This document shows, in pieces, positions 13,006-35,174 of a stretch of 64,000 nucleotides of DNA. Position numbers and translations under genes: made by a program. The notes below the pieces were generated by a model. That model had not been told where the DNA came from. It saw only the letters and a list, made by a program, of their open reading frames with translations, and ran no database searches. This stretch comes from a virus. Location: positions 1-64,000 of the IMG/VR virus record IMGVR_UViG_3300023301_001182. One strand, written 5' to 3'. Position 1 is the stretch's first letter, and every line of letters starts with the position of its first letter.

Positions 13006-13006
13006 T

Positions 13007-13610: not shown

Positions 13611-13642
13611 TTTGTATTTATAACAATAATTCTGTATCTTTG
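13611..13642 (+). promoter_or_regulatory. Bacteroidota-type promoter for the cargo-protein operon
   Basis: TTTG(13611-13614)-N20-TATCTTTG(13635-13642), 8 nt before ATG 13651, which suggests a near-leaderless mRNA. Confidence 0.75.
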
Positions 13643-13650
13643 CTAAACTT

Positions 13651-15327: not shown

Positions 15328-17138
15328 TGAAACAAGATTTAATTAGCCAATTCTCATTACCTCCATATATAAAAGGTAAAAGCTTTTCAGAGGCAAGTAA
15401 AGCTATTGAAAATAAATTCAAGGACAGAAATGATAATGCTGCAAAGGAAACTAAAAATGCTTTGTTGGAAAGATTATCTCAAGCTCAAGAATTTGTTAAG
15501 ATGCAAGAATCTGTAAAGAATGAATCTCAACAAATTCCTGACCAAATGGATGGTCAAGTTCCTGAAGGTATGGAAGAGTATATGGCACAACAAGGTGGTC
15601 AACCACAACAAGAGATTCCTATGCAACCCCAACAAGGTATGCAACCTCAGCAAGGACAACCAGCAGATCCAAATGTAGCTGCTTATGGTGGACTATTTGG
15701 TAAACAGAATAAATATAATGTAGGTGGTTCTATGGGACAAGCTGTTACAGGTATACCAACACAACAAATAGGAGTTAACACAGTTCCTGGTGGAGGTATA
15801 GACCCTACATTAGCTGCTGGAGCACCAATGGGTGTTGAAGTCCCTGGTGGAGGAGGTGGTGCAAGTGCTGCTGGAACTGCTGGAACTGCTGGAACTGCTG
15901 GAGCTGCTGGAACTGCATTAGAGTTAGGAAAAACTGCTTTTGGTCCTACAGGAATAGATATGTCAGGAGCACAAAAAGCACCAGAAACACAAAGTAAAGG
16001 TATGGGAGCTGCTAGTAGTGCTATAAAAGGTGCAGGAGCAGGTGCTGCTTTTGGGCCTATTGGAATGGGAGTAGGCGCAGTAATAGGTGGAGCTGCTGGA
16101 TTTATTGGTGCAGGTAAAGCCCAAAAAGAAGCTAATGAGGCTAGAAATAATTATACATATACTCAAAACTCTGATATAAGACAAAGTGATTTTGCTATGG
16201 GTGGTAAAATGAATAAATATGGTGATGGTGGTAGACCTTTTCAAAGAGATCCTAATGCTCCTAATTATAGTGATTTAAGTAAACCTTTAGATAGAAATAT
16301 AAATCCTGGAGCACCATCATTAACTAGTCCGTCTATATATGGTCAAGCACCTAAAAATATGGGTAATTATGCTGAAAGAACAGCACCTGATACAAGTAAT
16401 TTAGATTTTGGTAGTAAAAATCCTACTAATCCTAATTTTGATAATGGTACAGTAGCAGGTAGAGGTTTAGATTGGTTAGGTAAAAATGCAGGTAATATAG
16501 CACAATATGCTCCTGTTGCAGGTAATCTTATGTCATTAAAGAATTTAAAACAAGGAGCTACTGAAAGAGGTAGTAGAGTAGATAATGTATATCAACCACA
16601 ATTATATGATGAAGCACGTCTACAAAATATATTAGGTCAAAGAAATACTGAAAGAGCTCTTACAGAAGCATCTGGAGGTGATTTAGGAGCATTAAGAAGT
16701 AATTTAGTTGCAAGTGGCGCAGGTAAGACAAAGGCTCAATCTGAAGCTATGGCACAAGCTGATTCAGTTAATAGAGGTGAAAAAGGTAAACAGTTTCAAT
16801 CTGAAGTAGCTAGAGATAGAACTAATATTCAATTAGATCAAAATTTCTTAGAAAGAAAAGCTGCAGATAAAGGAGCATACGAAACTACTAAAGAAAACTT
16901 GAAAAGACAATTAGCTCAAGATGTTGGTGCTATTGGTAAAGAAGAAGTTGATAAAAAGTTAGTTAAAGAGATGTTTGGTTATACATGGAATGGTAAATAT
17001 TGGGTAGATGATGAAGGTAATACTTATTCAAATAAAGATGTTAATACTAAACTTAAAACTGAAAAAGAAACTAAATCAGAGAAAGATAAGAAAGATTATG
17101 AAGACTATCTTACTTATAAAAAATCTAAAAAAGAATAA
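15327..17138 (+). CDS. Virion cargo/ejection protein with glycine-zipper membrane segment
   Basis: Q/P-rich linker and the glycine zipper GAGAGAAFGPIGMGVGAVIGGAAGFIG; no Cys. Confidence 0.55.
   Translation: MKQDLISQFSLPPYIKGKSFSEASKAIENKFKDRNDNAAKETKNALLERLSQAQEFVKMQESVKNESQQIPDQMDGQVPEGMEEYMAQQGGQPQQEIPMQPQQGMQPQQGQPADPNVAAYGGLFGKQNKYNVGGSMGQAVTGIPTQQIGVNTVPGGGIDPTLAAGAPMGVEVPGGGGGASAAGTAGTAGTAGAAGTALELGKTAFGPTGIDMSGAQKAPETQSKGMGAASSAIKGAGAGAAFGPIGMGVGAVIGGAAGFIGAGKAQKEANEARNNYTYTQNSDIRQSDFAMGGKMNKYGDGGRPFQRDPNAPNYSDLSKPLDRNINPGAPSLTSPSIYGQAPKNMGNYAERTAPDTSNLDFGSKNPTNPNFDNGTVAGRGLDWLGKNAGNIAQYAPVAGNLMSLKNLKQGATERGSRVDNVYQPQLYDEARLQNILGQRNTERALTEASGGDLGALRSNLVASGAGKTKAQSEAMAQADSVNRGEKGKQFQSEVARDRTNIQLDQNFLERKAADKGAYETTKENLKRQLAQDVGAIGKEEVDKKLVKEMFGYTWNGKYWVDDEGNTYSNKDVNTKLKTEKETKSEKDKKDYEDYLTYKKSKKE
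15870..15914 (+). repeat. In-frame 9-bp tandem repeat (GCTGGAACT x5, one variant) encoding AGT repeats
   Basis: gctggaact gctggaact gctggaact gctggagct gctggaact. Confidence 0.9.
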
Positions 17139-17140
17139 CA

Positions 17141-18958
17141 ATGGCTCAGATTAATCGTTACACAAATTTACAACCAGCAAAATATACTCCTAGGACATTA
17201 CAGGAGCAAATGTTGGTTCCAGCATATAAGAGACAACAACATAATGCATTGGATACAGCAGCTTCAGAATTAGGAGCTATAGAATCCAATAGATTAAAAA
17301 CAGATGAAGAGGCTGTATCAGGAGCTATTTCTGAGTTTGATAAGGAGTTATCTGATTATAGAGATAAATTAAATAAAGAAGGTTTTTCTCAATCCAATAA
17401 ATCATATATAAATACTTTAACTAAAAAACGACAAGATTTACTATCTAATACAGGTGTGGTTGGGAAAGCAACTAAATCATATGAAGCCTATAAACAAAAT
17501 GAGGAAGAACTAAAAAAGTTATATACTTCTGGTAAGATAAGTCCAGAAAAATATCAATTAGGAATACAAGAAGCATTATCACAATATGATCAGTCAGGTG
17601 GTGTAGTTAATAATGGTGAATATAATTCATTTATGGCTTCTCCTGATCAAGATATAATGAAGAGAGCAAGGGAAATAGCACTAGATATACAGAAAAATCC
17701 TTCAACATTAACTAATTTTGGATTAATTAAAAAAGGAAATAGATATTATGACACTAAAACTGAGACAGATTATACAAAAGAGGAAGCTATATCTTATGCA
17801 ATTCAAAGTATCTTAGGACAAGACCAAGAGATTAGTTCTGACCTAATGCAAAGAGAAGAGTTGGGGATGTTTGGAGATAAGACAGCTAAAGATTACTTAA
17901 AAAGTATAGGAGATACCCATGAAGTATTTTATTCAAAAAATAACACTAGTAAAACACAATCTGGTTTTTATGATCCAGATGAAACATATTTAAGACATAA
18001 AGCATTAGATAAACAACTTAAAGAAGATGCCGTTGATTTTGAAAATTATACAACTACAGTTACCCAGTTAAATAATAGTGATGATATCGCTAAATTAAAA
18101 GATGTTAGAAATGGTATAATAGGAATTGATGCTAAACAGTATATGAACCGTGGTGATGTATCTTTCCTTGAAGCTATAAAAGATGTTATATTAGGAAAAG
18201 CACCACTATTACCTGAAACATTTGAAAAATTAGAAGGAAATCTTAAAAATAAGGTAGAGAATGTATTTGAAGGTCTTAAACGAAATGGAACATTATCACA
18301 AGATGCAGAAATAGGAAGCAAAGAAAGTTTAGGGGCAGTAATTAATCATATGGAAAATACTAAAGATATATCATTAACTCCTAAAGTAATAAAACCCTCT
18401 CTAAAAAAGCAGGACGAAGAAAGAAAAAATATTATTAAAAATGCAAGAAGTCGAGAATTTTACGTTGTAAAAGATAAAACAGCTTATTCATATGAACAAA
18501 TGATTGATGAAGATTATCTCACAGAAAATTATAATGAGAATTTAAAAAATTCAATTTATAATGGTCAATTATCTTCAGATAATGATTATTCGATGAAATT
18601 ACCTATTGATTATGGGAATACTTGGAATATACCACATGTAATGACAATTGGGGGAAATGAAGTTTTAGTGTCACCTAGTGCATCTGAATTAGCTAGCCCT
18701 TATAATAGGACTGAAGATAATTTACATAAAGAGTTCATAAAACTACAATATAGTGCATTACCAGAATTATATACTTGGAGGTATCAAGATGGAGATGGTG
18801 TAGATATAACCAGAGACGTTGAAGCTGAAATTACTACTGGAGGGAGATATATAGTTAGAGCTCCGTCTTTAAAAGATCCTAATTTTATACAGGAAGATAC
18901 CCTTAGTGCAGATGAATTTAGAGAAGTTTTATTAGATTTTACTCCAAGAAATAAATAA
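17141..18958 (+). CDS. Virion cargo protein (helical)
   Basis: 605 aa; N-terminal NRY...YTP..LQE...P motif; no Cys; within the cargo block. Confidence 0.5.
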   Translation: MAQINRYTNLQPAKYTPRTLQEQMLVPAYKRQQHNALDTAASELGAIESNRLKTDEEAVSGAISEFDKELSDYRDKLNKEGFSQSNKSYINTLTKKRQDLLSNTGVVGKATKSYEAYKQNEEELKKLYTSGKISPEKYQLGIQEALSQYDQSGGVVNNGEYNSFMASPDQDIMKRAREIALDIQKNPSTLTNFGLIKKGNRYYDTKTETDYTKEEAISYAIQSILGQDQEISSDLMQREELGMFGDKTAKDYLKSIGDTHEVFYSKNNTSKTQSGFYDPDETYLRHKALDKQLKEDAVDFENYTTTVTQLNNSDDIAKLKDVRNGIIGIDAKQYMNRGDVSFLEAIKDVILGKAPLLPETFEKLEGNLKNKVENVFEGLKRNGTLSQDAEIGSKESLGAVINHMENTKDISLTPKVIKPSLKKQDEERKNIIKNARSREFYVVKDKTAYSYEQMIDEDYLTENYNENLKNSIYNGQLSSDNDYSMKLPIDYGNTWNIPHVMTIGGNEVLVSPSASELASPYNRTEDNLHKEFIKLQYSALPELYTWRYQDGDGVDITRDVEAEITTGGRYIVRAPSLKDPNFIQEDTLSADEFREVLLDFTPRNK

Positions 18959-18970: not shown

Positions 18971-21900
18971 ATGGAAGACGAAGTTATAGAAGATAATGGA
19001 TTACTTAATGAGTATTTAAGTAAAAAATATGCACCAAAAGATAGGTCTATATATGCTAAACCAAGTGATGTCAGTTCTTTTACTGGATTTAATACAGGTA
19101 TAGGAACTGCTGGTAAGTATGATGAAGGGTTTGAGGCTAAACTTCATATGGGTGATAGTTCTTTTGATAATGCCTTAAATACATACAGAGCTAAAAGTCA
19201 ATCTGGATTACAACAATTTGGTAATGCACTTGTAAGATTAACTAATATTATACCAGAAGCAGTTGGAAGTATTGGTTCTGCATTAGATTTTGAAGATTAC
19301 TTTAATTCCGATAAAGAAGTTGGTAATTGGTTAACATCTATGATGGAAGAGTGGAAAGCTGCTACTGCTGAGGCTCTACCTATATATAGAGAAACCCCAG
19401 GTAAAACCTTTGATATAGGTGATTCTGGATGGTGGTTTGATAATGGTTCGTCTTTAGTTAATTCTATAGGAGGTTTTGCACTTGGTGGAGGTATATTATC
19501 TAAAGGTCTTGTAGGGTTAAGTAAACTTTCTAAAATAGGAATATTAACAGAAAGTATTATAGGAGCTAATAAAGCTAAACAAGTTGGAAGAATAGCTCAT
19601 AATGTTGCAACATCTACAATGTTAAATCAGGCTGAAAGTATATTAGATGCTACAGATGTATATGACGAAACATATGCTAGAACATTGTCACAACTAAAAG
19701 CTAAAGGTGATATAAATGTTGAAGATAAAGCTAGACAAAAAGCAGCAGATGCAGCTAGTGTCACAATTAATACTAACCGTATTAATATATTATTAAATTT
19801 AACATCTGCTAATCGATTTTTAAAATCCCCTACATTAACTAGAAGGCTCTTAGAAAAACAAACTCTTAAAAGAAGTATGGACCGAGCTTTTATGGAAGGT
19901 GGGCAGGAGTATGCAGAAGAGGTTATAAATTATGTTGCTGGACAAAAAGGTAGAGCATTTGGTAAAGATGAAGATTATACATTTAACTCTCTAATTAAAG
20001 ATGTAAGTTCACCTGAAGCTGCAGAGGCAGGTGTAATGGGTTTTATTGGCGGTATGGGTCAGACAGCTCTTACTAAAGAAGGGTTCCAAAGAATAGCTAA
20101 AACAACAGATCCTAAAACAGGTAAAAAAATAAGTATTAAACAATATGATAGAAATAGATATGATGAACAAAGGTCTATTATAGAAGAATATGAAAATAAT
20201 GCTAAAGTTTCAGATGTAAAATTTTTTACAGATCAGTTTGAAAGTATTGGTGATAAAATAAAAATACAAGAATCTTATAAAAAAGCATTAGAGGATGGTA
20301 ATGATGAAGAAGCCTCTAGAATAGCAAATTTATCATTAGATCTACAAGCTTATAGTTCTTTCCAAAATGGTACTACAGAGTCATTAATTAAACTTTATGA
20401 GGAGTTAAAAGAAGGTGAACAAAAAGAGGGTATGCCAGATAATTATAAGGAAAAGGCACAAGAAGGTATTGATAAGATAAAAAAATTAGAAAAAATATAT
20501 AATAGTTCTTCTAAATTTGCTAATGTAAAAGAAGTATTTTTAAATAGGACTAGTAATGTAGAATTAGAAAATAAATATAATGAAAGTACTACTATATTAA
20601 ATAATAATAAAGCAGAGTTACAAAAAGAAATTGATAGATTAGTAGAACATTCTAAATATAAAAATATAGAAGATAATGTAGATATAGATATAAATGATTT
20701 AGGAAAATTAAAGAAAACTGCTCCTAAATTATATGATGCAATACAAGGTCTACCTCACTATAATCCAGAATTAAAGAAATTACAAGAAGATGATTATAAA
20801 GCTATTGCAAATAATGACAAGTCTTATAAAAAAATAACAAGTAAAGATTTTCAAGATAGATATAAAAATGCAAAGGAAGAGGCTTATAATACTGTTATAA
20901 AGGAATTAGAAAAACAAGATGTAATAGATAAAGAACTTGAGATAATTAATAATATAGATAATAAGGATGATTTAGATAGCTATAAATTATCTACATCATC
21001 AGATACAACTATACAGGATGCCTATAATGCTAAATTAAATGAATTAAAAGATATTTCTGATGAGGTTATAAATAAACAAGCAGATACTCAAACAACCAAA
21101 ACTGAAGAAATTAATCAGGAAAAAGAAGTCGAAGTAGAAGATGATATAGAGGCTAGTAATAATATTATTAATAATTCCAATGTAGGAGAGATTCTTCCTA
21201 TTACACCAGAACTTATTAAACTTGCCAAACTAGATCCTAATTTGTTAGAAGATGCAGGCGGAGCTTTAATTGAAAGTATTGATGGTAATAAGATTAAAAT
21301 TAATATAATAGCAACTGGTGAAAGTAAAATTATAACTTTAGATAAACCTTTACAAACTATACAAGACCCAGAGTTAGATTATAGTACAGATGGTTCTTTA
21401 AATCATGATACTTTAATACCAAAAACAAATGAAAATAAAGGCTCTAGTAAAGCCACTGATGCAGGATCTGGTACATCTTTATTAAGTACTAATATGAGTA
21501 CAGGAGAGAGGCTTGATTTCGTTTCTGAAGCCTATTTAGACTATGAGAGAGAACCTATTGATAAGAAAGGTAAAGGTGTTAACTTTGAAATAAACTTTAA
21601 AGCTGGTAAAAATATTAGTTGGGATAATGCTATAGGTATTTATGATAAATTTAAAAAAGGTAAAGTTCTTAATGCAAAAGAAGTAGAAATATTAATTAAA
21701 GATTTACCTATTAATGCAGTCCTTGCAGAGGATGTATTTACACCTATTCATACATCCTATAAATCTAATGGTAATACAGACACTTTTGATAATAGTTCTA
21801 GAATTTTAAGAACTAAAGTTATAAACGCATTACTTAGTGGTGTAGATATAAAAGATATAACATCTATTATAGAAGGTCAATACAAAGGATTCTTACAGAT

Positions 21901-23647
21901 ATCTCCTAGAATAGATGATAGAGTACAAGAAAATAGTCTTTTAGGTTTACACTTTTTAAAAGGAATGTCTAAAGCAGATAAGATTAAAACCATCAAAAAG
22001 AATATAGGATATATAGATAGTGAAGGTAATATTGTTACTAATAGTAAAACAATACCTTTTAATAAACCTAATGCTAGAGGAGAGATGTATTTAATGATTC
22101 CTCAAGCTAATGGTGCATTGTTTCCTTTAAAATTAAACATTAAAAAAATACAGGAATATGATGCTGAGTTATTATCTAAAATAATAAAAATTAGATTAGA
22201 TAACCAACAGATCGGACAATTAACTACATTATCAGAGATAAAAGATAAAGATTTAAAAGCTCAAATAAGTGAAAAGTTTAAAAGTATAGTACCATTAATT
22301 GGTAAGTCATATAAGGATACTAGTATTAAAGACTTAATAGACCTTATTATATTTCAATATGCAGGTATTTCTGGAGAATTTAGCCCTAAGACACAAGTAA
22401 GGTTCTCTGGGACTGGTATAAAGGGTGAACGAGTATTATTATATGGTAATCCTGAACTTAATGGTAAGTCCGTTAATAATGCTGAAGAGTTTGATGTTGA
22501 CCATTTTAAAAATTGGTTATCTGAAAATAAAAGATATAATATTAATGTTCAGCCTAAAAATAATCAGGATAGTAAAGCTAATATTTGGGAGAACACTAAA
22601 TATTTAGAATACTTAGTTGATAATGATATATTAAATACAAATGCTAAAACTAGTGTAGATAATTCTGTACCAACATTTCAGGGTTATAGTAATATCTTTT
22701 TAGATTCTCATAATGTAAAATATCCCTCTTCTCCTACAAAACAAGAAGTAGTTAATGATGATGGAAAAACAGTTGCAACAAGTGAACAAGATTCATCTTA
22801 CTCTAAAAAAGTAGATGGTTCTTTATCATCTAATGAATATAATGGTAAAGCATACTTAGTTACAGGAGTTAGTGGTAAAGTATTTGAAACAACTAATAAA
22901 ATTGATACCTCTAAAGCAATGTCTAACTTAGAACAATTAAGAGGTAATTTAGTTACTGATTCTGATTTAATTTTTGAAATAGAGAAATTACATATAGAAA
23001 GTACTTGGTTTGGTGATGCTGTTTTATTAAAAAGATACGATAATATTAGGAAATCTCAGAAAAATGTTGTACCTTTGCAAAAACCAGCAACTAAAACAGT
23101 TCAACCAGTTGTTTCTAAAACTATAATATCTGAATTAGTTGAATTAAAAGAAACAGTTCAACCAACTACTAAAACAATAAATAAAGAGGAAGCAATAATA
23201 AAACTTGGTGAACTTTTAGATAAAAAAAATCCTGGAAGGGCTATTTCTAAAAGGTTACAAGGTGATCCTGATTTCTATATAGGTGAAATACAAAATGATA
23301 TTTCCAAAGTAGGAACTAATAATTACTGGATAGCTTCTGAGGATATGGGTAAAGCTAATGATTATATGAATATAATTAAAGGTCATACTCCAATAGTTAC
23401 TAAAGAGGCACCTAAAATAGAACCTAAAGTAAAAATTAAAGTAGACCAAACATTGAAAGTAACAACAAAAACAGTTCAAGAATTAACTATGCTTATAGCT
23501 AAAGCAAAATTATTACCTAAAACAGGTAGTAAAGCTTATAATGATATAATCAAAAATGGTACTAACTTGGATAAATTCAATAATTTAAAAGCAATAGCTG
23601 ATAAACATAAATTAGATATATCAACTATAATCAAAAATTGTAAATAA
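18971..23647 (+). CDS. Giant virion cargo/ejection protein
   Basis: 1558 aa with hydrophobic Gly-rich segments and an EGGQEYAEE motif; immediately upstream of the vRNAP. Confidence 0.6.
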   Translation: MEDEVIEDNGLLNEYLSKKYAPKDRSIYAKPSDVSSFTGFNTGIGTAGKYDEGFEAKLHMGDSSFDNALNTYRAKSQSGLQQFGNALVRLTNIIPEAVGSIGSALDFEDYFNSDKEVGNWLTSMMEEWKAATAEALPIYRETPGKTFDIGDSGWWFDNGSSLVNSIGGFALGGGILSKGLVGLSKLSKIGILTESIIGANKAKQVGRIAHNVATSTMLNQAESILDATDVYDETYARTLSQLKAKGDINVEDKARQKAADAASVTINTNRINILLNLTSANRFLKSPTLTRRLLEKQTLKRSMDRAFMEGGQEYAEEVINYVAGQKGRAFGKDEDYTFNSLIKDVSSPEAAEAGVMGFIGGMGQTALTKEGFQRIAKTTDPKTGKKISIKQYDRNRYDEQRSIIEEYENNAKVSDVKFFTDQFESIGDKIKIQESYKKALEDGNDEEASRIANLSLDLQAYSSFQNGTTESLIKLYEELKEGEQKEGMPDNYKEKAQEGIDKIKKLEKIYNSSSKFANVKEVFLNRTSNVELENKYNESTTILNNNKAELQKEIDRLVEHSKYKNIEDNVDIDINDLGKLKKTAPKLYDAIQGLPHYNPELKKLQEDDYKAIANNDKSYKKITSKDFQDRYKNAKEEAYNTVIKELEKQDVIDKELEIINNIDNKDDLDSYKLSTSSDTTIQDAYNAKLNELKDISDEVINKQADTQTTKTEEINQEKEVEVEDDIEASNNIINNSNVGEILPITPELIKLAKLDPNLLEDAGGALIESIDGNKIKINIIATGESKIITLDKPLQTIQDPELDYSTDGSLNHDTLIPKTNENKGSSKATDAGSGTSLLSTNMSTGERLDFVSEAYLDYEREPIDKKGKGVNFEINFKAGKNISWDNAIGIYDKFKKGKVLNAKEVEILIKDLPINAVLAEDVFTPIHTSYKSNGNTDTFDNSSRILRTKVINALLSGVDIKDITSIIEGQYKGFLQISPRIDDRVQENSLLGLHFLKGMSKADKIKTIKKNIGYIDSEGNIVTNSKTIPFNKPNARGEMYLMIPQANGALFPLKLNIKKIQEYDAELLSKIIKIRLDNQQIGQLTTLSEIKDKDLKAQISEKFKSIVPLIGKSYKDTSIKDLIDLIIFQYAGISGEFSPKTQVRFSGTGIKGERVLLYGNPELNGKSVNNAEEFDVDHFKNWLSENKRYNINVQPKNNQDSKANIWENTKYLEYLVDNDILNTNAKTSVDNSVPTFQGYSNIFLDSHNVKYPSSPTKQEVVNDDGKTVATSEQDSSYSKKVDGSLSSNEYNGKAYLVTGVSGKVFETTNKIDTSKAMSNLEQLRGNLVTDSDLIFEIEKLHIESTWFGDAVLLKRYDNIRKSQKNVVPLQKPATKTVQPVVSKTIISELVELKETVQPTTKTINKEEAIIKLGELLDKKNPGRAISKRLQGDPDFYIGEIQNDISKVGTNNYWIASEDMGKANDYMNIIKGHTPIVTKEAPKIEPKVKIKVDQTLKVTTKTVQELTMLIAKAKLLPKTGSKAYNDIIKNGTNLDKFNNLKAIADKHKLDISTIIKNCK
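23046..23077 (+). promoter_or_regulatory. Intragenic Bacteroidota-type promoter upstream of vRNAP
   Basis: TTAG(23046-23049)-N20-TACCTTTG(23070-23077); same elements as the 4868 promoter, but inside a CDS. Confidence 0.5.
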
Positions 23648-23648
23648 T

Positions 23649-26600
23649 ATGGCTTGTACAAGACAAACTAAGATTAATAAACAACCTTCAATATTATTTG
23701 ATACTTTATTTAGTATATCTAATGATGAGTCACTAGCAGAAGAACAATTAGCACATTTTGAAAGTGATGCTTTTAAGGAAGATTTTGCTAAAGATACATC
23801 TACAGGAAAAGTTATTGATTGGGTAGAAGACTCTAGAAAACCTATTCATAGGAGAGAAATAAATCAGAATAGAGTAGATGAAAATGGAGAACCTTTACTA
23901 ATTTTTGACAATAAATATGGAAAATATTATTATTTAAATAAAGATAATAGTAAAATATATTACCCAAAAGCTGTATCAGAATTAAATAGTAGTTATACTA
24001 ATCAAGCTATTAGAGATATAACTAAAAAACTAGCTTTGAATTTTGTAAAAGATAGACTTAGTGATAATTTTAATGAATTTGATTTTTCTAAAAAAGAAGG
24101 AACTATTAGAAAAAGTATTAATGGTAAGATTAGAGAAAGAAGTACTGAATTAGTAAACAGTGGAGATTTTGAACAATTTATAAAAGGTAATCAATTATTA
24201 GAAAGTTTAGATAATATTGATGAATGGGTTAGAAATGTTGAAGATTACTTTAGGGAAATAAAATTAGTTTACAAAGAAACTACTGATATAGAAGACCAAG
24301 ATGCTGAAGAAACTGAAGAGAGAGGTCAATCTTGGGGTACAGCATCATTTGAAAAAAGTACTAAAAATAATATAACAGCTAATATTAAATTATCATTATC
24401 ATTATTACAAAATGAAGGCACTAAAGATGATTTATTCTTTGAAAATGAATTTAGAGACTTCAGTGAAGTATATTCTACATTATCAGGAGTATTAACAAAT
24501 AGAACAGCTAAAACTGGGGAAGATTTATTTGAAACTTATTTAAATGAAGTATTTAAACTTATTCCTAAAAAACCATATTTAGCCCAACTACATGAGCAGT
24601 TAAAAAAAATGAATGATTATAAAAAGGCTGAATTTGTTTCAGCATTTAATCTTCATAAAAATTTATACTATGGTACTGTTTTTAATATTACATCAGAAGA
24701 GGTATATAATGATAATAAAGATAAAATAGGAGATAAATTTACTATTAAACACGATGTATTAAATTTATCAAATGTAGGTGCTAAAGATAGGTTTGTTAAA
24801 AATGGTTGGTATCATAACTTTATAAAGATATTTTCTAATAAGAATAATATAATTGATGCTGAATCTTATGTTAATTTAACTAAGGGCTCTGTAGATTTTA
24901 CTAAATTTAATAATAATTTAAAATTAACTATAAGTGAATATGATAGTTTTGATGATTTAGATCCAATTGTTACAGAATTATTTTCATATTTAGAAAAGAT
25001 TGGTGTTGTAACTACTAAAGAAGGTGTTCAACATTATTTAGATGGGTTAAATTCTGAAAAAGTCGACATAGATACTTATAAAGCTAATATAATAAAATTA
25101 AGCTCAGATACAAAATTTTTACTTACAAGATTAGCTGATAAAACTATTAATTTAAATAGAGTTAATCCTTTTGATGACCAAGATGAACTTAAAAATCTTG
25201 CAAAAGCAGAAGCATTCTATATATCAGAGATGTCAGATGCCTCTATATTTGCAGGAGGTAAATCAAGATGGTTATATTCTTATCCATCATACTTGTCTTC
25301 TAAAATACAAAGTTGGAGAAATGATAGAAGCTTATTATTAGCACATTATGAATTAGATAAACTTAGTAGTTCATCTCATTATATGCATAATTTATTAGCT
25401 CTTGATATTGAAGATATAACTGAAAGATTAAGAACCTCTCAAGAAAGATTAGATGAATTTCAATTAGCTATATTCAATACATTACAAGAAGAAGAAAAAA
25501 CATCCGATGTAGTGGATAATAAAACTATTACTAAAAATGATTTCTTTGCTGATACCTATAATAAATTATTAAGCTTTAAGAAATCAACTTCTAATGGTGT
25601 TATAAATACTACAACTCCTGCAGATAAAGGTACTCAATATCAATTCAAAGCTTCTAAAGGGATGTTATTTACATCTAATGCTAGATATGTAAATGAGAAA
25701 GTTATAATAGATGATAAGGGGTTAAATATCTTATTTGATCATGTAAAAGGTGAGTTTGAAAGAATTAAATCTACACAAAGAGAATTAAATTTTGCAGAAG
25801 AAACTGGTGATAGAAGTAATTTGAAAATGTATAAACATATACAAGAAGATGAAAGTAGACCAAATGGTTTAAACTTTGCATCATTTCCTAGTTTAAATTT
25901 TAATACATTTAATCACGAGAAATCTGGGTTTTCTTTATACAAAGCTGATGGTAAACCAATAGACTTTGATTTGGAAACTGTAAAGGATTTAATAATGCCT
26001 ATTATAGAAGATGTTATAAGTAAAGATATAGAGGCTACTAATAAACACTTACGTGATGCAGGTATAACTGCATTTGATGAGAATGGTATAACAATTAATA
26101 GAGCTATAGATAATCAAATATGGGAATCATATGGAGATATTAATACAGGTTTAAAAGTTGCAGGAGATATATATATTAATGGTTTAATTTCACAACTTGA
26201 ATATTCTAAAATGTTTGCAGGAGATGTTGCATATTATAAGAATATGATGGATTATAAAAAAAGAATTCCAGCTACATATTCAGATGGATTGCAGTTATAT
26301 TTAAGAGCAGGAAAAGAATTTTTTAATGTAGCAGTAATAGAAGGTGTGGAAGTTTCTGTACCATATATGGCTGAACTTATAGAACTTGTAGGTGAAGAAA
26401 TTGCAAGTAATTATACTAAAGTTAATTCAACAGATGCACAAGCTTGGATTACTCCAGAAAGATGGAGATTCTTAAAGCAAAGATTAGGTAAATGGAGTGA
26501 AATTGATGATATAGTTTATGATAAATTAACTGAAGTAAATGAAGAACCATTTACATTAGAAGAATTAAAGCATGCAGCACAGCCATTAAAAGGTGTATAC

Positions 26601-29600
26601 TTTGAAATAAATAATGGTGCACCTGTATATTTAAAATACTCTCAAGCAGTATTACTGCCACAGATAGTTAAAAATAATCCTGAATTACAAAAATTTAAGG
26701 ATAAAATGGATGTTAAAAATATAGATGAGTTAATTACTATTGATGGTATTAAAGTTGGGGCTAATATACCAGTTAAAACTCATGATATCAATGGTAATGT
26801 ATTAAATGATTTTGAATTAACAACTATTCAACTTAAAAATAGTGGATGGAAATTACAACAAGATTTACCTACAAAAGGATTTAAAGATACAGCAGTAGGT
26901 AGTCAAATTCAAAAGAATATATTTACAGGATTAGCTTTTAATAAAGAAGAATTATTTCTAGTAGATGATGAGGAACTCACTGGTGGTGAATTAATTGACC
27001 ATATTAATGATATTGTAGGGTTATTATCTAATAAAGGTGTTGCTAATTTAAAGAAAGAATTTGGTATTGGTTCAGATAATAAAATAACAAATATAAATAA
27101 ACTAAATAAAGTATTAATAGACGAACTTAAATCGAGAGGCTCATCTCAAAATGTAATAAATGCTTTAGAAAGTGGTTTAAGTCCTTTTGGAATTCCAGGA
27201 TCTCAACAAAAATTACAAAATATATTTGCATCAATTGCTACAAAGAGGATAGTTAAAATAAAGACAAATGGTGGCTCTTTTATACAAATAGCTAATTATG
27301 GATATACTAATGATCAAGCTAACTCTAAGGGCGTTATATGGACTCCTTGGGCTAAGGATAAGACTCATGAGCCAGAGTTTTTAAAAAATGAAGATGGTAG
27401 TTTCAAATTATCTGAATCAGGTAAGAAAATAGTAAGACCTGGTGGTATCTTAATTAGTGGTTCTTTTATTGCCAAGTATGTTCCAGGGTATGAGAAAATG
27501 TCTCATGAAGAATTATTTGGTACAAAAGAAAGTAATTACACAGATGGATTAATTGATAGAAAAATACTTGATAATATAGTTGGATATAGAATACCAAATC
27601 AAGCTTTAGCATCTAACGATGCATTAGAAATTGTTGGTATTTTACCTCCAGGTGTTGGTGATTCTGTTGTTGCTTATACAGGTATTACTAAAAAAACTGG
27701 TAGTGACTTTGATATTGATAAAATGTATTTAATGATGGGTTCTTTTAAAGCTACCTTTAAGAATGCCAAGAAAATTAGAGATTATGCAAATAATCAATTA
27801 AGAGGAGACACTATATTAAAGACCGCTGAAAACATAGCAGATTTATTAGATCAATTAGATAGTGAAATAGAAACAGATATCAATGCTGATGATATAGCAT
27901 CTATGATGTTTAGTAAGTCTGATAAAGATTTAAAAAACCAAGAAATAAATAATTTAATAAATATCCTACTAAAGAATAAAATAGAAAATCCTTTTATAAC
28001 AGAATTAAAAACTAAGATTCCAGGTTTTAATAAGATAGGTAGATTAGTATATTCAACACCTAGATCAAATAATCTAGGGGAAATGTCTAAAGATGAATTA
28101 CAGAATAAATTAATAGAGGCTTATAAATCAGTCTTAACAAATTCTTCAGTAATTCAAAATGTAATGACACCTATTGATTATGATTTTATAAAAGATGATA
28201 TATTACAATTGTTTCCAAGACAGGAAGAAAAGGATTTATTTCATTTTAATATTACAGAGGATATAAACTTAAAATATCAATTCTCTGCAGGTAAAGCTGG
28301 TGTAGGACAGACTGCTAATACTATGATGGATCATATAAGAGGTAGTATGGCAGATTTATCTTTTCATAAGTACTATTTAGGTATTGGTGAATTTAGAATA
28401 AAAGATGGTATAAAAGAAACTATATTTGATACAAAAGAGACCTCTAAAGATATAAAAGAAAAAGGCAATAATCAAAAAAGGATAAAAATAACTGATTCAC
28501 TTTCTGCAATACTTAATGCATTTGTTGATATTGCAAAAGATCCTTATATTACTAGAGGAAATTGGAATACTCAAACTGCTAATGTAGGATTTATGCTACT
28601 TAGAGCTGGTGTTCATCCTTTTCATGTAAATGCTTTATTAGGTCAACCTATTTTAAAGGAATATGTAGAATTTGTAACCAATTCAGAATCTAAAATTAAT
28701 AATGATACTGGTAATTTATCTAAGAAATTCTTAAAAGAAAAATTTGGTGAAGAAAAACCATCTTTAAAAATAGATCCTTTATTTGATATAGGTGATTTTA
28801 CTTTAAAAGAATTAAGATCTCAAATTGCTAATACAGAAAGTGATGAATTTATTCAAAAAAATATATTTAAAACCTTTATTGAGTGGCAAAACCAATCTAA
28901 GAAAGTAGGAGAAAATAATAAAGCTTCTAAATTTGATGTAGAAGGGTATGGTAAAAATGTTACATCTCTAATTGTATATAAAAACTTAATTAATAAATTA
29001 CTAATTACTGGGGAATATGAAGCTGGTAATTTTAAAGGTTTTGCTAGTAAATTAAAAAAAGATGGTAAGAATACTTTCTTAGCACATTATAAGGAAGGTA
29101 TCATTGATTTTATAGGGGATGTTATGGTAGCAAATCCAGGTACATTTTTAGTTGCACAACCTGATATTATAGATACATTTAATGAAATATCTAAAGGTGT
29201 TACAGGGGATGTATTAACAAACGATGAATTAGCAACTAAATTGGAAACTGCATATTATTCATACTTAATGTCTGGATTTAAGCCTTTTGATGTTACTAAT
29301 GAAGATAAAGCTGTTTTACTAGAAAGTATTATTAAAGACTTATCTAATTATAAAAAGGGAAGTAAAAATATATTAATTCAAGAATTAGATATTAAATTAG
29401 CTGAACGAGTTGATGGTAAAGAAACTTTCTTTATTGGGATGAACAATAGAAAGAAATCTGTAACTTATGAGACAGATTTAATTGCCGCTTGGTTAGATTT
29501 AATTGAAGATAATCCAAAATTAGCAGAGGATTTAATTAAATATTCATACATTACATCTGGATTTCAGATGAATATGAATCAATTTTATAATCTAATACCT

Positions 29601-31019
29601 TATCAATGGTTTGTTAGAAATGGTTTAAATGATCACATTAGAGCTCATGTAAGTAACTTAGAGGGCGTAGATACCATATTTATGAAAAACTTCTTTAAAC
29701 ATAGCTTAAAAGACGATCAGATAGTATCAAAGGTCTTCAACAGTATGAAAGATAGAAATTATATTCGTGATGTATTCGGATTTGTTTTAAAGGATAAAGA
29801 TAATGTTAAGAGTTATGTTAAACAAGACGTAGAGGTTAGTAAAGATATGCTTGGAGAACCAATTTATAAAGCTAGATTATATGAATTAGTTGGATATACT
29901 AAGGATAATAAACCTGTATATATGGCTACATCTTCTAAAGGGAGTGTAGATAAAAAAGGTTTTAAAGTTTATGAATATTCACCTATTGAATCAGATAATA
30001 GTATCTTTAGTAAAAATAATGTAAAAGTACCTATAAAGAGACAAGATGAAATTAATAGATATATAGCTCCTAAACAAGATATAGTTAATAGTAGTCCAGT
30101 GGCTAATGTAGAAATAGATATTGTGAATGATAATGATGTAGTAGTTGAGAAGGAAATAGAGGATTTAATAGAACCTAAGACTTTAAAAGAATATGCAGAT
30201 AAATATAATATTAGATTTTATCAAAATAGAGAAATTGTTACACAAGAAGATATTGATTATTATGATGGTCAATTAAAAAGGTTACTGGATGGTGGCTCAT
30301 TTAAATATGCAATGTTTGAATTTTTTGAAAATACTACAAATTTGAGAAATAAATCTTCTTTTAAACGTTACTATGATAAACTAATAGAAAAAGGATTTAA
30401 ACCAGTAGAAGGGAAAGAATATATATTATCTAAAGGGGGTGTAAACCCTATAGATGAATTTAATAAAGAATATAGAATAGGGAAAGTAAGTAATATAGTA
30501 GATACTTCTGAAATATATCAAAAAAGAAATATATTTACAGTAAAACCTATACAAGCAGTAGATAAAAAAGCTATATCTAAAGCAAGTATAGCTACACAAT
30601 ATATAGGATTTGCTGAAGGAATTGAAGGTAGTTCTACAGCTTTATATGCTAAACAAGCAGGTGATGTTGCTAATACAGGAGTTTATAACTTTAATGATGT
30701 AATATTTGTATCTGTAGGTGGAAAAAGAGGTACTGAAGTTATAAGACAAAAACAACAGGATAAGACTATTATAGAAGCTATTAAAGCATTAGAAAAGGGT
30801 GCTACTCTACTTACTGATAATAAAGAATATGTAGACAATAATCCTTATAATGAGGGAGAAAAGAAACTTAAATCTAAACTAGAAAGTGAAAGATATAACT
30901 ATTCTGAAATTATAGTAGATGAAAATAAAATAGGAGTTTGGAATAAAGTAAATAATAAAAAAATAAAACCAATAGATCCAAATCAACTGGATATATTTAA
31001 TAACGAAGATAACTGTTAA
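23649..31019 (+). CDS. Virion-packaged double-psi-beta-barrel RNA polymerase (crAss-like)
   Basis: 2456 aa; catalytic TGSDFDIDK (DFDID at 27705-27719), GYRIPNQ, TDAQAWIT, KRIPA, AFVDIAKDP. Confidence 0.92.
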   Translation: MACTRQTKINKQPSILFDTLFSISNDESLAEEQLAHFESDAFKEDFAKDTSTGKVIDWVEDSRKPIHRREINQNRVDENGEPLLIFDNKYGKYYYLNKDNSKIYYPKAVSELNSSYTNQAIRDITKKLALNFVKDRLSDNFNEFDFSKKEGTIRKSINGKIRERSTELVNSGDFEQFIKGNQLLESLDNIDEWVRNVEDYFREIKLVYKETTDIEDQDAEETEERGQSWGTASFEKSTKNNITANIKLSLSLLQNEGTKDDLFFENEFRDFSEVYSTLSGVLTNRTAKTGEDLFETYLNEVFKLIPKKPYLAQLHEQLKKMNDYKKAEFVSAFNLHKNLYYGTVFNITSEEVYNDNKDKIGDKFTIKHDVLNLSNVGAKDRFVKNGWYHNFIKIFSNKNNIIDAESYVNLTKGSVDFTKFNNNLKLTISEYDSFDDLDPIVTELFSYLEKIGVVTTKEGVQHYLDGLNSEKVDIDTYKANIIKLSSDTKFLLTRLADKTINLNRVNPFDDQDELKNLAKAEAFYISEMSDASIFAGGKSRWLYSYPSYLSSKIQSWRNDRSLLLAHYELDKLSSSSHYMHNLLALDIEDITERLRTSQERLDEFQLAIFNTLQEEEKTSDVVDNKTITKNDFFADTYNKLLSFKKSTSNGVINTTTPADKGTQYQFKASKGMLFTSNARYVNEKVIIDDKGLNILFDHVKGEFERIKSTQRELNFAEETGDRSNLKMYKHIQEDESRPNGLNFASFPSLNFNTFNHEKSGFSLYKADGKPIDFDLETVKDLIMPIIEDVISKDIEATNKHLRDAGITAFDENGITINRAIDNQIWESYGDINTGLKVAGDIYINGLISQLEYSKMFAGDVAYYKNMMDYKKRIPATYSDGLQLYLRAGKEFFNVAVIEGVEVSVPYMAELIELVGEEIASNYTKVNSTDAQAWITPERWRFLKQRLGKWSEIDDIVYDKLTEVNEEPFTLEELKHAAQPLKGVYFEINNGAPVYLKYSQAVLLPQIVKNNPELQKFKDKMDVKNIDELITIDGIKVGANIPVKTHDINGNVLNDFELTTIQLKNSGWKLQQDLPTKGFKDTAVGSQIQKNIFTGLAFNKEELFLVDDEELTGGELIDHINDIVGLLSNKGVANLKKEFGIGSDNKITNINKLNKVLIDELKSRGSSQNVINALESGLSPFGIPGSQQKLQNIFASIATKRIVKIKTNGGSFIQIANYGYTNDQANSKGVIWTPWAKDKTHEPEFLKNEDGSFKLSESGKKIVRPGGILISGSFIAKYVPGYEKMSHEELFGTKESNYTDGLIDRKILDNIVGYRIPNQALASNDALEIVGILPPGVGDSVVAYTGITKKTGSDFDIDKMYLMMGSFKATFKNAKKIRDYANNQLRGDTILKTAENIADLLDQLDSEIETDINADDIASMMFSKSDKDLKNQEINNLINILLKNKIENPFITELKTKIPGFNKIGRLVYSTPRSNNLGEMSKDELQNKLIEAYKSVLTNSSVIQNVMTPIDYDFIKDDILQLFPRQEEKDLFHFNITEDINLKYQFSAGKAGVGQTANTMMDHIRGSMADLSFHKYYLGIGEFRIKDGIKETIFDTKETSKDIKEKGNNQKRIKITDSLSAILNAFVDIAKDPYITRGNWNTQTANVGFMLLRAGVHPFHVNALLGQPILKEYVEFVTNSESKINNDTGNLSKKFLKEKFGEEKPSLKIDPLFDIGDFTLKELRSQIANTESDEFIQKNIFKTFIEWQNQSKKVGENNKASKFDVEGYGKNVTSLIVYKNLINKLLITGEYEAGNFKGFASKLKKDGKNTFLAHYKEGIIDFIGDVMVANPGTFLVAQPDIIDTFNEISKGVTGDVLTNDELATKLETAYYSYLMSGFKPFDVTNEDKAVLLESIIKDLSNYKKGSKNILIQELDIKLAERVDGKETFFIGMNNRKKSVTYETDLIAAWLDLIEDNPKLAEDLIKYSYITSGFQMNMNQFYNLIPYQWFVRNGLNDHIRAHVSNLEGVDTIFMKNFFKHSLKDDQIVSKVFNSMKDRNYIRDVFGFVLKDKDNVKSYVKQDVEVSKDMLGEPIYKARLYELVGYTKDNKPVYMATSSKGSVDKKGFKVYEYSPIESDNSIFSKNNVKVPIKRQDEINRYIAPKQDIVNSSPVANVEIDIVNDNDVVVEKEIEDLIEPKTLKEYADKYNIRFYQNREIVTQEDIDYYDGQLKRLLDGGSFKYAMFEFFENTTNLRNKSSFKRYYDKLIEKGFKPVEGKEYILSKGGVNPIDEFNKEYRIGKVSNIVDTSEIYQKRNIFTVKPIQAVDKKAISKASIATQYIGFAEGIEGSSTALYAKQAGDVANTGVYNFNDVIFVSVGGKRGTEVIRQKQQDKTIIEAIKALEKGATLLTDNKEYVDNNPYNEGEKKLKSKLESERYNYSEIIVDENKIGVWNKVNNKKIKPIDPNQLDIFNNEDNC

Positions 31020-31022
31020 AAA

Positions 31023-34000
31023 ATGGGATGTCCAATAAAAGTAAAATTAATCAACGACTTAATAGATAAGGGAGCTATTAATAGTAAAGAAGAGGTTATT
31101 AATTTAGCCAAATTTAAAGATTTAAATGAATCATATACCAAATTAGCTAATGGAGAGTATGATGTAAATACCTATGGTAAAGATTTATTTACTGTAGAAG
31201 ATATATCTGTTAAAGGTAGGTCTATTACTAAAATTATCCCTAATACTACAGTTTTAGATTTAATGACAGATGTTGTTGAAGATAGTAAAGTAGAAGAGAC
31301 TGTTAATGAAGAAGTTATTATTGATAAAAAAAATATAACAGATTTACTTGATGAAAGTGCAGATAACTTCTTATATACTGTAGAAGAATCAGTACAAACT
31401 GAAACCACTGATCCTAATATAAATAGTAAAATATTATTTGATAATCAAGATAGAACTTTTACAGCTAAAGAAGTGTTAGATAATATTAAACTAAATTATT
31501 CTGGATTGAATGAAGGTGTTATTGCTTTAATTGATAAATTATTACCAAAGTTATATACTACTAATTCTAAGATTAAATTTGTATCAGAAGCAACATTATC
31601 TAACACTAATGATGTAATGGAGTATAATCCTATTACAAATGAAGTTTTAATATCAAAAGATAGATTAGAAAAGTATAATACAGAAACTGTAATAGCTTCT
31701 TTTTTACACGAAGTAATTCATAGTACTGTTATTAAAGCCTATAAGAATCCTGTTACTATGGAAGAAAAGATGTTTAAATCTTTCATAGATGATATATTTG
31801 CAAAGTATAAGGATACTGCAGATTTCAAAGAACAAGGGTTTGATAATGAAATGGAATTCATGGCTAAGATAATGACTGATTCTGAGTTTCAAGATAAAAT
31901 TAAGAACACTGAAAGTCTTTGGGATAGAATAGTAGATTATATTAGAACACTTATAGGGTTACCTAAAAATAGTGAATATAATAATATTATAGAGGAGATA
32001 ACTAAAGTTATAGAAGAGAGTAATTATGTAGGTGGTATAAATGATATGTTATATCAAAGCAGAGCTGAACGTAATTATTATGATATATCATCTACAGAAA
32101 AAAGACAGAAGAAAGTATTAGATGGTATTAAAGATAATTTAGAAGAGAGTGTTAGAAGATATGACAATCTTATTAAAAAATTAAAAGACCCAAGTAAATT
32201 ATCTAAATATTCAGATAAATTAAAAGACATTTTTGATAATTTAGAAAATTTTGATGATACACAAGAATGGTTAGCAATTAGTACATTTGTTGGTCAATTA
32301 AGTAGAAATATTAATAATTTAAAAGAAAGTTTTAATAAAGTAGATATTACAGCAGATGATATAGAGAAAACTGTTAATTTATACGATAAATATTTAACAT
32401 CACATTCTTTAATAGAAGAAATATCTGATTTTGTATCTAAAGCTAAAGCTGATGAACATTTTTCAATTAGTAGGGAAGATATAATAAAACTACAAAATGA
32501 CCTATCTATTGCTAAAGGAGAATATGATGCTTTGAAAAAAGATATTCAAAGTATGAAAGAAAAATTTGCAACAAATCTTTTAAATAATAGAAAATATGCT
32601 TCAGAAGTATTACATAAATGGGAAATTAAATTAGGTAAAAAATATAATACTTTAGGACTTAAAGAAAATAAAACTAATTGGGTAGGTAGACAAATGAATA
32701 CTATCTATAAAGAAGAAATTGATGCAGATGTTAAAGAAAATGCTAATAAATTAGTTAATAATGTAGATTATGATATTACTAAGTTAACAGGATTATTTGT
32801 ATCTGGGATTAGCACTAATTCCAAGTTAATTAAAATCATGCAAAATCTTGTAAATGAAGTTAGGGGAAATATTATTAAAACAATTAGAAATAAAGACTTT
32901 GAATTAAAACCTATCTTTGATAAATTTGTAAAAGCTAAAGGAAATAGTTCTCCATCTGTAATGAATAAAAATATTTTAGAATATGATAAAGATGGTACTG
33001 CTTATTTAAAAGGTGATTATAAATTAGAATTTAGAGAATTATATCAAACTAAATTAAAGGATTATAATGCTGAAAAAATAGCAGTTGAATCTAAATTTGG
33101 AATTGCTTCCTCTGAGTATCAAAAATTATATATTGATTCTGAGTTTAAAAATTGGGTTGATAATAATACTATTACTATATCAGATGAAATGGGTAATGAA
33201 TATAAAAGACCTATTGATAAGTGGAAGAATGATTTATCAAAATTACCTATAGAAGATAGAGAGGTTATTGAGGCATTTAGAAAGATTTCACAAGATAGCA
33301 ATAAGTCTACATTTAAAATACAATCTTTAATTAGTAAACCTTTATTTGGTGGTAGATACTATAGTTTACCTGTAGCTACTAAAACCGATTTAGAAAGAGT
33401 ATTAGAGAAACAAGTTGTTGGTACTATAAAAGATAAATGGTATGATTTAACTAAGGTTAGACCTGATGATATAGGTTATGAAATTATTAATACAGATTTA
33501 GCTGGAAAACCTATTTATAATGTTAAAATACATTATAGGGGTAAGTTAGATCCGTCTCAACAATCCTTAGATGTATTTACTTTATATAGGCTAGAAGCTA
33601 GAAATGGTATAAGCTTTGAAGAGAAGCACAATGCTGAAACTAATGTTAATATGTTAGTAGATATTTCTAAACATAAAGAATACTATCGTAGTACTGGTAC
33701 TAGAGTACCATTTTTAAATATAAATATTAATAGAAATAAAGAAGCTACTAAAAAAGGAGAAGAGTCTAATACATATAAAAGAATGATATCATTGATGGAA
33801 TCAAATATTTATGATATATTATATAAAGATGCTGGAAAGACTGGTAAAATAGATAATAATAAAGCTGTTGCATTAGCTATAGGGTGGACAGCTAAAGTTG
33901 GTTTATGGATGGCTGGCGTAGCTGGTTCTGTTAATGTATTAAATGGTAAAGCTCAGTTATTTTTAGAAACTATTGCTGGTACAAGTATTACTAGAAGATC

Positions 34001-35174
34001 GTTAGGAGTAGCTGAGAAAAACTACTTTAAAGATATAAAAGCAAATATGCAAGATTTGACTAACCCAATTAAAACATCTTTTACCAATCAAGTAAATGAA
34101 ATGTTTGATACTTTTGGTACAATAAGTGTTAAAGTAGAGCAAGCATTTATAAGAAATACATTGGCCAAATCAGTATTAGATACACAATCTTTACAATTTG
34201 TACAAGAAAGTGGAGAACATTGGATGCAATCTACTTTAACTCAAGGTGTTTTAGAAGATATAAAAGTTATGGATAAAAATAATAACTTCTTAACTAAAAC
34301 TGGAGAAATAACTACAGAGGAAAACGGAGCATCTATGTTGGATATGCTGTTTAAAAATCCTATTACTGAGCAATTAGAATTAAACCCAAAAGTAGTTTAT
34401 ACCACTAGAAGCATTGGGGTGAAATATAATGAAGGCGGTAAAGAAATAGTTACTAGTCTTATAAAATTAAAGATATTACAAACAATGGGTAATTATGATA
34501 AAAATATGCAACCCGAGGCTATGCGGCATGCTCAATATAAAATGCTTATGACATTTAGAAGATACTTTGTAGAATTAGGGATAAATAGATTTAGAGGTTT
34601 TTCTCGTGTAGATATAGCAAGTAAAGATTTATTTGATGAAGAGAAATTTTATTCAGAAGAAGAACAAGAGTATATAGAGGGAATGTATACTACAACTATA
34701 CGATATATAATTCCAATTATAAAATCTTTAAATTATAAATTAGTCTCTACAAATTGGAAAGAATTATCAGATTATGAAAAAAGTAATATTCATAAAACTA
34801 TTGTAGAAGTAGCTATAACTAGTGCTGTATTACCAGCTATTGGTGCATTATTAGCAGCTTTAAAAGGAGATGATGATGATGAACGTATTTGGTTTTTAAT
34901 GTTAATTAATAGAAGATTACAATCTGAATTATCTTCTTTTAGGAGTTTAAGTGAACAATATAAAATACTTGAATCCCCTATACCATCTATGAGGATGTTA
35001 GAAAATGCTACTAGGGTGATAGGTGATATAGCACAACCTTTGAATTGGAATGAAAGGGATAGTAAAGATAGATTAAAAATTATAAAAGATTTTAAGAAAA
35101 TAACTCCAATCATAAATTCTACTAATTCTACATATAAACAAAAATATCAATATTTAATATATATGACAAATTAA
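31023..35174 (+). CDS. Giant virion cargo protein with zincin-like HExxH domain
   Basis: 1383 aa; FLHEVIHS..NEMEFMAKIMTD..F zincin-like signature; hydrophobic C-terminal helices. Confidence 0.65.
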   Translation: MGCPIKVKLINDLIDKGAINSKEEVINLAKFKDLNESYTKLANGEYDVNTYGKDLFTVEDISVKGRSITKIIPNTTVLDLMTDVVEDSKVEETVNEEVIIDKKNITDLLDESADNFLYTVEESVQTETTDPNINSKILFDNQDRTFTAKEVLDNIKLNYSGLNEGVIALIDKLLPKLYTTNSKIKFVSEATLSNTNDVMEYNPITNEVLISKDRLEKYNTETVIASFLHEVIHSTVIKAYKNPVTMEEKMFKSFIDDIFAKYKDTADFKEQGFDNEMEFMAKIMTDSEFQDKIKNTESLWDRIVDYIRTLIGLPKNSEYNNIIEEITKVIEESNYVGGINDMLYQSRAERNYYDISSTEKRQKKVLDGIKDNLEESVRRYDNLIKKLKDPSKLSKYSDKLKDIFDNLENFDDTQEWLAISTFVGQLSRNINNLKESFNKVDITADDIEKTVNLYDKYLTSHSLIEEISDFVSKAKADEHFSISREDIIKLQNDLSIAKGEYDALKKDIQSMKEKFATNLLNNRKYASEVLHKWEIKLGKKYNTLGLKENKTNWVGRQMNTIYKEEIDADVKENANKLVNNVDYDITKLTGLFVSGISTNSKLIKIMQNLVNEVRGNIIKTIRNKDFELKPIFDKFVKAKGNSSPSVMNKNILEYDKDGTAYLKGDYKLEFRELYQTKLKDYNAEKIAVESKFGIASSEYQKLYIDSEFKNWVDNNTITISDEMGNEYKRPIDKWKNDLSKLPIEDREVIEAFRKISQDSNKSTFKIQSLISKPLFGGRYYSLPVATKTDLERVLEKQVVGTIKDKWYDLTKVRPDDIGYEIINTDLAGKPIYNVKIHYRGKLDPSQQSLDVFTLYRLEARNGISFEEKHNAETNVNMLVDISKHKEYYRSTGTRVPFLNININRNKEATKKGEESNTYKRMISLMESNIYDILYKDAGKTGKIDNNKAVALAIGWTAKVGLWMAGVAGSVNVLNGKAQLFLETIAGTSITRRSLGVAEKNYFKDIKANMQDLTNPIKTSFTNQVNEMFDTFGTISVKVEQAFIRNTLAKSVLDTQSLQFVQESGEHWMQSTLTQGVLEDIKVMDKNNNFLTKTGEITTEENGASMLDMLFKNPITEQLELNPKVVYTTRSIGVKYNEGGKEIVTSLIKLKILQTMGNYDKNMQPEAMRHAQYKMLMTFRRYFVELGINRFRGFSRVDIASKDLFDEEKFYSEEEQEYIEGMYTTTIRYIIPIIKSLNYKLVSTNWKELSDYEKSNIHKTIVEVAITSAVLPAIGALLAALKGDDDDERIWFLMLINRRLQSELSSFRSLSEQYKILESPIPSMRMLENATRVIGDIAQPLNWNERDSKDRLKIIKDFKKITPIINSTNSTYKQKYQYLIYMTN

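Follow-up and report, generated by a model that had tools for sequence, protein, structure and literature searches.

Three consecutive genes of an uncultured crAss-like phage encode giant proteins whose only cysteines (Cys) lie at the protein ends that face one another, and these proteins are probably joined in the virion by head-to-tail disulfides. The genes lie in the window analysed here, a stretch of 64,000 nt (positions 1 to 64,000 of IMG/VR record IMGVR_UViG_3300023301_001182) from a 92-kb genome, and encode protein A, the virion RNA polymerase (vRNAP, protein B) and protein C. Among cultured phages, Cellulophaga phage phi14:2 is its nearest relative (32% identity). The 2456-aa middle protein matched the phi14:2 vRNAP (6vr4_A) with an E of 1e-253 (residues 56-2110 versus 64-2113), and from its sequence it is a crassvirus vRNAP of the phi14:2 type. 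It is flanked by homologs of both conserved giant partners, in the gene order of phi14:2. The proteins of this block were detected by mass spectrometry in virions of phi14:2 and crAss001, and packaging and delivery were reported for both phages. The phage of the window probably packages and injects its three giant proteins as well.

The three genes belong to a run of six consecutive + strand open reading frames (ORFs) of 558, 603, 605, 1558, 2456 and 1383 aa, together 7,163 aa. Counting on the translations revealed four Cys in the whole block: Cys1557 of protein A, Cys3 and Cys2456 of the vRNAP, and Cys3 of protein C. The 558-, 603- and 605-aa proteins have 0 Cys each. Protein A ends in KNCK, the vRNAP starts with MAC and ends in EDNC, and protein C starts with MGC. 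The first-pass annotation had described four Cys in six proteins, each C-terminal Cys facing an N-terminal Cys of the next product and the outer ends of the trio (the N-terminus of A and the C-terminus of C) having none; translation confirmed this count exactly, with all lengths and positions. The Cys content was 0.056% in the block compared to 1.26% in the remaining ORFs of the window, and about 90 Cys would be expected where 4 were seen (Poisson P~2e-33). The probability is ~2e-12 that four Cys land by chance at the four facing termini, one in each 3-residue stretch.

Homologs of the three proteins retain these residues. Among vRNAP homologs at 34-55% identity, a Cys was found in the last 7 residues in 120/120 and in the first 8 residues in 116/120, and nearly all of these proteins have exactly two Cys in 2,000-3,400 aa. 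All 14 of the 14 protein A homologs have a single Cys, inside the last 6 residues, and 19/22 protein C homologs have a Cys at positions 3-6, the other 3 being N-terminally truncated. Conservation of this kind across Crassvirales was one of the checks that the first-pass annotation had proposed. The alignment of protein A, at 18% mean identity, has only 3 invariant columns, one of which is the C-terminal Cys; protein C has five (C3, H229, E230, H233 and P783). Conservation of the terminal Cys is as strict as that of the HExxH site. The terminal Cys range over residues 3-8 at N-ends and -1 to -9 at C-ends, and elsewhere the vRNAPs have 24 internal Cys in 499,912 aa, a frequency of 0.005% among 208 complete proteins. 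Lys is enriched beside the terminal Cys (~40% versus 9.6%), and a neighbouring Lys would favour reactive thiolates. The pattern was found in Steigviridae (phi14:2, crAss001, DAC15), in Suoliviridae (cr50_1, cr55_1, cr118_1), in Intestiviridae (cr8_1, the uncultured p-crAssphage-type LMMB and, after a likely start correction, crAss002), and also in Flavobacterium phage FpV4 and many marine contigs. The annotated start of crAss002 gp33 (12357-12460 of its locus) is probably 32 codons too early; Met33-Ser-Cys35 would give the usual 'MSC'. Many vRNAP homologs (P0004, P0057, P0064-P0071, P0106 and others) have inserted helicase, AlkB, NADAR, PF25176 or acetyltransferase domains and are still free of internal Cys.

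Some relatives encode neighbouring members of the trio as one protein, a form already noted in the phi14:2 polymerase paper. We compared fused and split forms in ~260 proteins from an exhaustive search with the vRNAP catalytic core, in which the A- and C-homologous regions were mapped by hidden Markov models (HMMs) and a terminal Cys was defined as one <=12 residues from the end. Free N-ends of the vRNAP had the Cys in 221 proteins and lacked it in 2, whereas 0 of the 17 fused N-ends had one; at the C-end, the numbers were 231 with and 5 without among free ends, and 0 with and 7 without among fused ends. All four fusion states were recovered, each obeying the same rule: B alone has both terminal Cys, the A+B fusion only the C-terminal one, the B+C fusion only the N-terminal one, and the A+B+C fusions (4,536-4,726 aa) have zero Cys overall. 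On a tree built on the 540-aa vRNAP core, the fusion state changed at least three times on the N side and at least four times on the C side, and Cys changed oppositely in 7/7 independent contrasts. In the B+C fusion P0207, ~33 residues are gone from either side of the junction, both Cys included, and its relatives at 50-56% are split and have the Cys pairs. A sequencing artefact was rejected for P0207: ~67 aa with both Cys are missing, and an artefact would retain the junction Cys. The A-B junction region of fused forms was too diverged to map by BLAST; nine N-side-fused proteins have zero internal Cys, and therefore no junction Cys is possible in them.

No Cys occurs at the outer ends of the trio, neither at the N-end of A (0/14, and 0/17 in A+B fusions) nor at the C-end of C (0/22, and 0/7 in B+C fusions). 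This polarity bears on whether the terminal Cys bond elsewhere, as A-A or C-C dimers, with a portal, capsid or tail protein, or by closing the vRNAP N-end onto its own C-end with A binding C. Several copies of the proteins are probably packed per virion, structural proteins of crAss001 use inter-subunit disulfides, and certain small gut-phage cargo proteins bear a single terminal Cys for which no partner is apparent, all of which would suit such bonds. Such strict polarity would not be expected were every end free to dimerise or anchor, two-Cys systems (A+B with C, and A with B+C) leave nothing but the facing pair, which speaks against self-closure of the vRNAP, and the A4 phage described below exhibits a heterotypic facing pair. 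We consider other partners unlikely. Small cargo proteins with one terminal Cys and no evident facing partner are found in LMMB (861 aa, Cys at -2; 2108-4693 of its locus), crAss002 (557 aa, -8; 1662-3335) and FpV4 gp30 (Cys5; 2045-3841).

Polarity and fusion also speak to the idea that the terminal Cys have no linking role and act as redox sensors or as processing or recognition signals, for example in switching on the self-inhibited vRNAP after entry. The phi14:2 vRNAP was crystallised in a self-inhibited state whose activation is unexplained, and the Lys beside the Cys would make its thiolate reactive. A sensor fails to explain why Cys occur solely at partner-facing ends and on A and C, which are not polymerases, and it fails to explain the paired loss of Cys upon fusion, so that we regard this role as very improbable.

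The same Cys codons could instead be a nucleotide signal at the gene junctions, such as one for translational coupling, or a chance pattern. Junctions in the window are indeed very tight (1 and 3 nt), with one TGT ~8-10 nt ahead of each ATG and another 7-9 nt behind it. Junction gaps span -1 to 751 nt, the Cys sit at variable positions (3-8, and -1 to -9), and TGC codons are also used. In crAss001, DAC15 and cr116_1, gene A is non-adjacent and convergent to gene B from the opposite strand, and protein A still has its only Cys at -3, -3 and -2, respectively. These data refute a junction signal, chance faces the probability given above for the window alone, and both can be set aside with near certainty. 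Taken together with the fusions, the results strongly suggest that the Cys rule follows protein breaks rather than gene junctions and acts at the protein level.

A further kind of break was found in cr116_1, where a group I intron splits the vRNAP gene inside DFDxD; no Cys pair is present at this RNA-level break. The Cys that ends the 2507-aa ORF of cr116_1 arises from intron read-through. An extra protein-level split in cr116_1 was considered and rejected, as the ORF breaks after DFD and before xD, between the group I intron halves. The intron region (15850-16830, L016) holds a 215-aa endonuclease-like ORF. Several of a set of metagenomic ORFs (P0239, P0248, P0226, P0230, P0242, P0262) end in 'KTGSDFD' or start with 'MFDIDKM', and this points to the vRNAP active site as a place of repeated intron insertion.

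A disulfide of the proposed geometry is known from the cyanopodophage A4 (Anabaena phage A-4L). Cryo-electron microscopy of its packed pre-ejectosome resolved a bond between gp27 Cys1715 and gp26 Cys5 (PNAS 2025, PMC12002296), gp27 being chain B of PDB 9K3A. The A-4L genome encodes a gp27 of 1717 aa with a lone Cys at -3, and the product of the next gene, gp26 (1114 aa), has a lone Cys at position 5; the pair is retained in Pf-WMP3, Pf-WMP4 and TR020 (Saffermanviridae, 23-27% identity). A4 and the crassviruses are alike in having consecutive giant ejection proteins with facing lone terminal Cys, and the signature of a lone C-terminal Cys facing a lone N-terminal Cys in otherwise Cys-free proteins is present in the window proteins. 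A4 differs in having two proteins rather than three and no RNA polymerase, and in being a T7-like cyanophage. The A4 paper took the bond as a local stabiliser and stated no rule and no link to gene fusion (PMC12002296). The only two Cys of A-4L gp28 (11322-14498 of its locus) form a CxxC located 20-23 residues from the C-terminus.

The A4 bond also helps to judge whether the facing Cys share a metal ion, or form some other reversible link, instead of a disulfide. What the sequences reveal is conserved facing thiols, which a metal could bridge, and such a bridge could arise while particles assemble in the reducing cytoplasm, or later in the anoxic contents of the gut. Each terminus offers a single Cys with no conserved His or second Cys adjoining and with neighbours that are mostly Lys, two thiolates by themselves make a poor zinc site, and the same signature in A4 is a disulfide. 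A metal link is accordingly improbable. For the A-B and B-C links, we favour disulfides.

To view the termini, we used AlphaFold2 (AF2) models of the N-terminal 800 aa of protein C (predicted local distance difference test, pLDDT, 72.6) and the C-terminal 799 aa of protein A (pLDDT 65). Cys3 of C is predicted to lie on a flexible tip of three residues that precedes a small, confidently modelled domain, and the Cys of A at the end of a terminal helix.

The three genes are probably the split form of a giant RNA-polymerase polyprotein that some relatives make as a single chain, and the disulfides would probably restore A-B-C as one covalent, nearly linear chain; this reading draws on sequence comparison and on the A4 analogy. 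Within the assembled virion, A would be joined through the Cys near its C-terminus to vRNAP Cys3, and vRNAP Cys2456 would pair with Cys3 of C. Such end-to-end bonds would leave overhangs of merely 1-9 residues. Other Cys would be avoided because an internal disulfide makes a loop or branch that can neither be unfolded nor pass through the tail; only end-to-end bonds would keep the chain threadable, which would account for internal Cys being avoided and for the terminal Cys lying so near the chain ends. The crAss001 authors argued that passage through the tail requires partial unfolding of the cargo, and crAss001 virions contain inter-subunit disulfides elsewhere (PMC10172136). Likely uses of the links would be joint packing at a fixed proportion, stability of the packed cargo and one protein trailing the next through the tail, after which the reducing cytoplasm of the host would break the bonds and separate the proteins. 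A search of the 92-kb genome revealed no phage-encoded thioredoxin. The first-pass annotation had proposed that the proteins are linked in gene order. In its favour, the facing pattern is conserved, it tracks protein breaks and the A4 bond has the same geometry; we infer the crassvirus bond, the sequence in which the proteins are ejected and their release by reduction.

Several observations weigh against this interpretation. A disulfide of this kind has not been observed in any crassvirus, the pairing of facing Cys rests on polarity and analogy, and neither the crAss001 atlas (PMC10172136) nor the phi14:2 polymerase paper mentions these Cys or a covalent link; the crAss001 maps do not resolve the cargo (PMC10172136). 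The fusion test mainly excludes roles of the Cys bound to a domain, because loss of terminal Cys on fusion is expected wherever terminal Cys matter. Gut hosts live without oxygen, and the virions were purified in air. A4 gp27 and gp26 gave blastp E>0.5 against the crassvirus proteins and no match with the HMMs of A and C, by which the A4 likeness is a functional analogy, not shared family membership. Neither Foldseek nor VIA-align matched the two AF2 models, which are large and multi-domain, to 9K3A, and this does not prove that a structural relation is lacking. Gut crassviruses keep the terminal Cys and tolerate 0.1-0.4% internal Cys. In weak cases the Cys lies at -50 (cr273_1), -11 (cr10_1), -12 (protein A of contig L019) or -173 (P0269), and ~4 free ends lack a Cys, in genes of uncertain completeness.

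Most apparent exceptions are miscalled starts or Cys just past the 12-residue cut-off. The cr273_1 Cys 50 residues from the C-terminus belongs to a fused protein. The late genes of cr273_1 (2809-26343) contain many in-frame TAG codons, 36 of them in one 5,794-codon ORF, which is consistent with TAG reassignment. In contig L018 (4589-9991), the gene of protein A ends early (1556 aa, 0 Cys), whereas in the otherwise identical L019 it reads 1796 aa, with the Cys at -12; the early stop is likely a frameshift or sequencing error.

Other phages that inject large proteins offer further comparisons. Among crassviruses, phi14:2 and crAss001 (gp47/gp50/gp49) encode direct homologs with the same terminal Cys pattern. 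In two cargo-module proteins, crAss001 Gp45 (3988-6516 of its locus) and phi14:2 gp80 (2563-3825), the sole Cys form an internal CX7-8C pair, at 390/398 and 369/378, respectively. The vRNAP gp50 of Schitoviridae (N4-like phages) is likewise a giant packaged and injected RNA polymerase with near-total absence of Cys; it is one unsplit chain (~3,400-3,500 aa) and belongs to a family of single-subunit polymerases that is unrelated (PMC11445570). Terminal Cys are not reported for Schitoviridae, as expected if Cys are needed only at chain breaks. The first-pass annotation held it as established that ejected proteins are Cys-free because they cross the periplasm: the absence of Cys in N4-like ejection proteins is indeed published, whereas passage through the oxidising periplasm was only "suggested" as its reason (PMC11445570). 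The T7 core proteins gp14, gp15 and gp16 are also ejected via the tail after unfolding, and gp15 and gp16 lack Cys. A facing Cys pair is absent in T7, where the sole Cys is Cys2 of gp14 (1229-1819 of its locus), without a C-terminal partner.

The features of the window are listed in the table below. The first-pass annotation spoke of six cargo proteins, a designation that rests on homology; the 558-aa protein passes the crAss_CARG1 cut-off and no other protein does. The predicted HExxH domain of protein C resembles PhiM1 ejectosome chain 8vb2_A (Z 10.4, root-mean-square deviation 3.6, 144 residues aligned), a pre-infection ejectosome structure, and the predicted domain (model residues 141-333) also weakly resembles other zincin proteases. 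A megablast of 9 kb of the window against a phage collection returned no near-identical DNA.

Coordinates of the six-gene block and its terminal cysteines in the window
Feature	Position	Strand	Basis
Cargo protein 1 homolog, 558 aa, 0 Cys	13651..15327	+	PF25725 crAss_CARG1 59.5 bits (cut-off 27); PHROG tail protein
Probable cargo protein, 603 aa, 0 Cys	15327..17138	+	Weak crAss_CARG1 23.9 bits, under cut-off
Probable cargo protein, 605 aa, 0 Cys	17141..18958	+	Position is that of Cys-free proteins upstream of the RNA polymerase (RNAP) block in relatives
Protein A, 1558 aa, first of RNAP block	18971..23647	+	Counterpart of phi14:2 GenBank gp78, crAss001 gp47
Cys1557 codon (TGT) of protein A, penultimate residue	23639..23641	+	
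vRNAP (protein B), 2456 aa	23649..31019	+	PDB 6VR4 match, DFDID
Cys3 codon (TGT) of vRNAP	23655..23657	+	
Catalytic DFDID motif of vRNAP, residues 1353-1357	27705..27719	+	
Cys2456 codon (TGT), final vRNAP residue	31014..31016	+	
Protein C, 1383 aa, zincin-type HExxH	31023..35174	+	Counterpart of phi14:2 GenBank gp76, crAss001 gp49
Cys3 codon (TGT) of protein C	31029..31031	+	
HEVIH (HExxH) metalloprotease motif of protein C	31707..31721	+	

A literature search found no report of facing terminal Cys or of a disulfide chain in crassviruses. Relative to the A4 bond, what is new is a rule that holds order-wide, a chain of three proteins with the polymerase among them, and the interchange of Cys pairs with gene fusion. 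The sequence rule is simple, with a Cys pair at every protein break and none at fusions, and it helps to locate the true starts and ends of giant genes and to separate protein-level splits from intron interruptions. What is at stake is how crassviruses, whose packed cargo is invisible in published maps, deliver ~700 kDa of polymerase-associated protein through a narrow tail. If the bonds exist, the near-absence of Cys in injected proteins would be explained by topology and not by periplasmic chemistry alone, stoichiometry would be fixed, and probably ejection order too, and two phage groups without detectable homology would have reached the same solution. It is possible, and we propose it only tentatively, that end-to-end disulfides are a general, convergent phage device for very large injected cargo, in which the need of injected proteins to unfold into a single thread confines Cys to the chain ends, fusion and the Cys pair are interchangeable in evolution, and host redox gates the first step of crassvirus transcription. 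If so, the re-joined, threadable chain would hold together both in the extracellular space and in the periplasm, host cytoplasmic reductases would then cut it into working enzymes, and this gating would concern the crassviruses, which are more abundant in the human gut than any other viruses.

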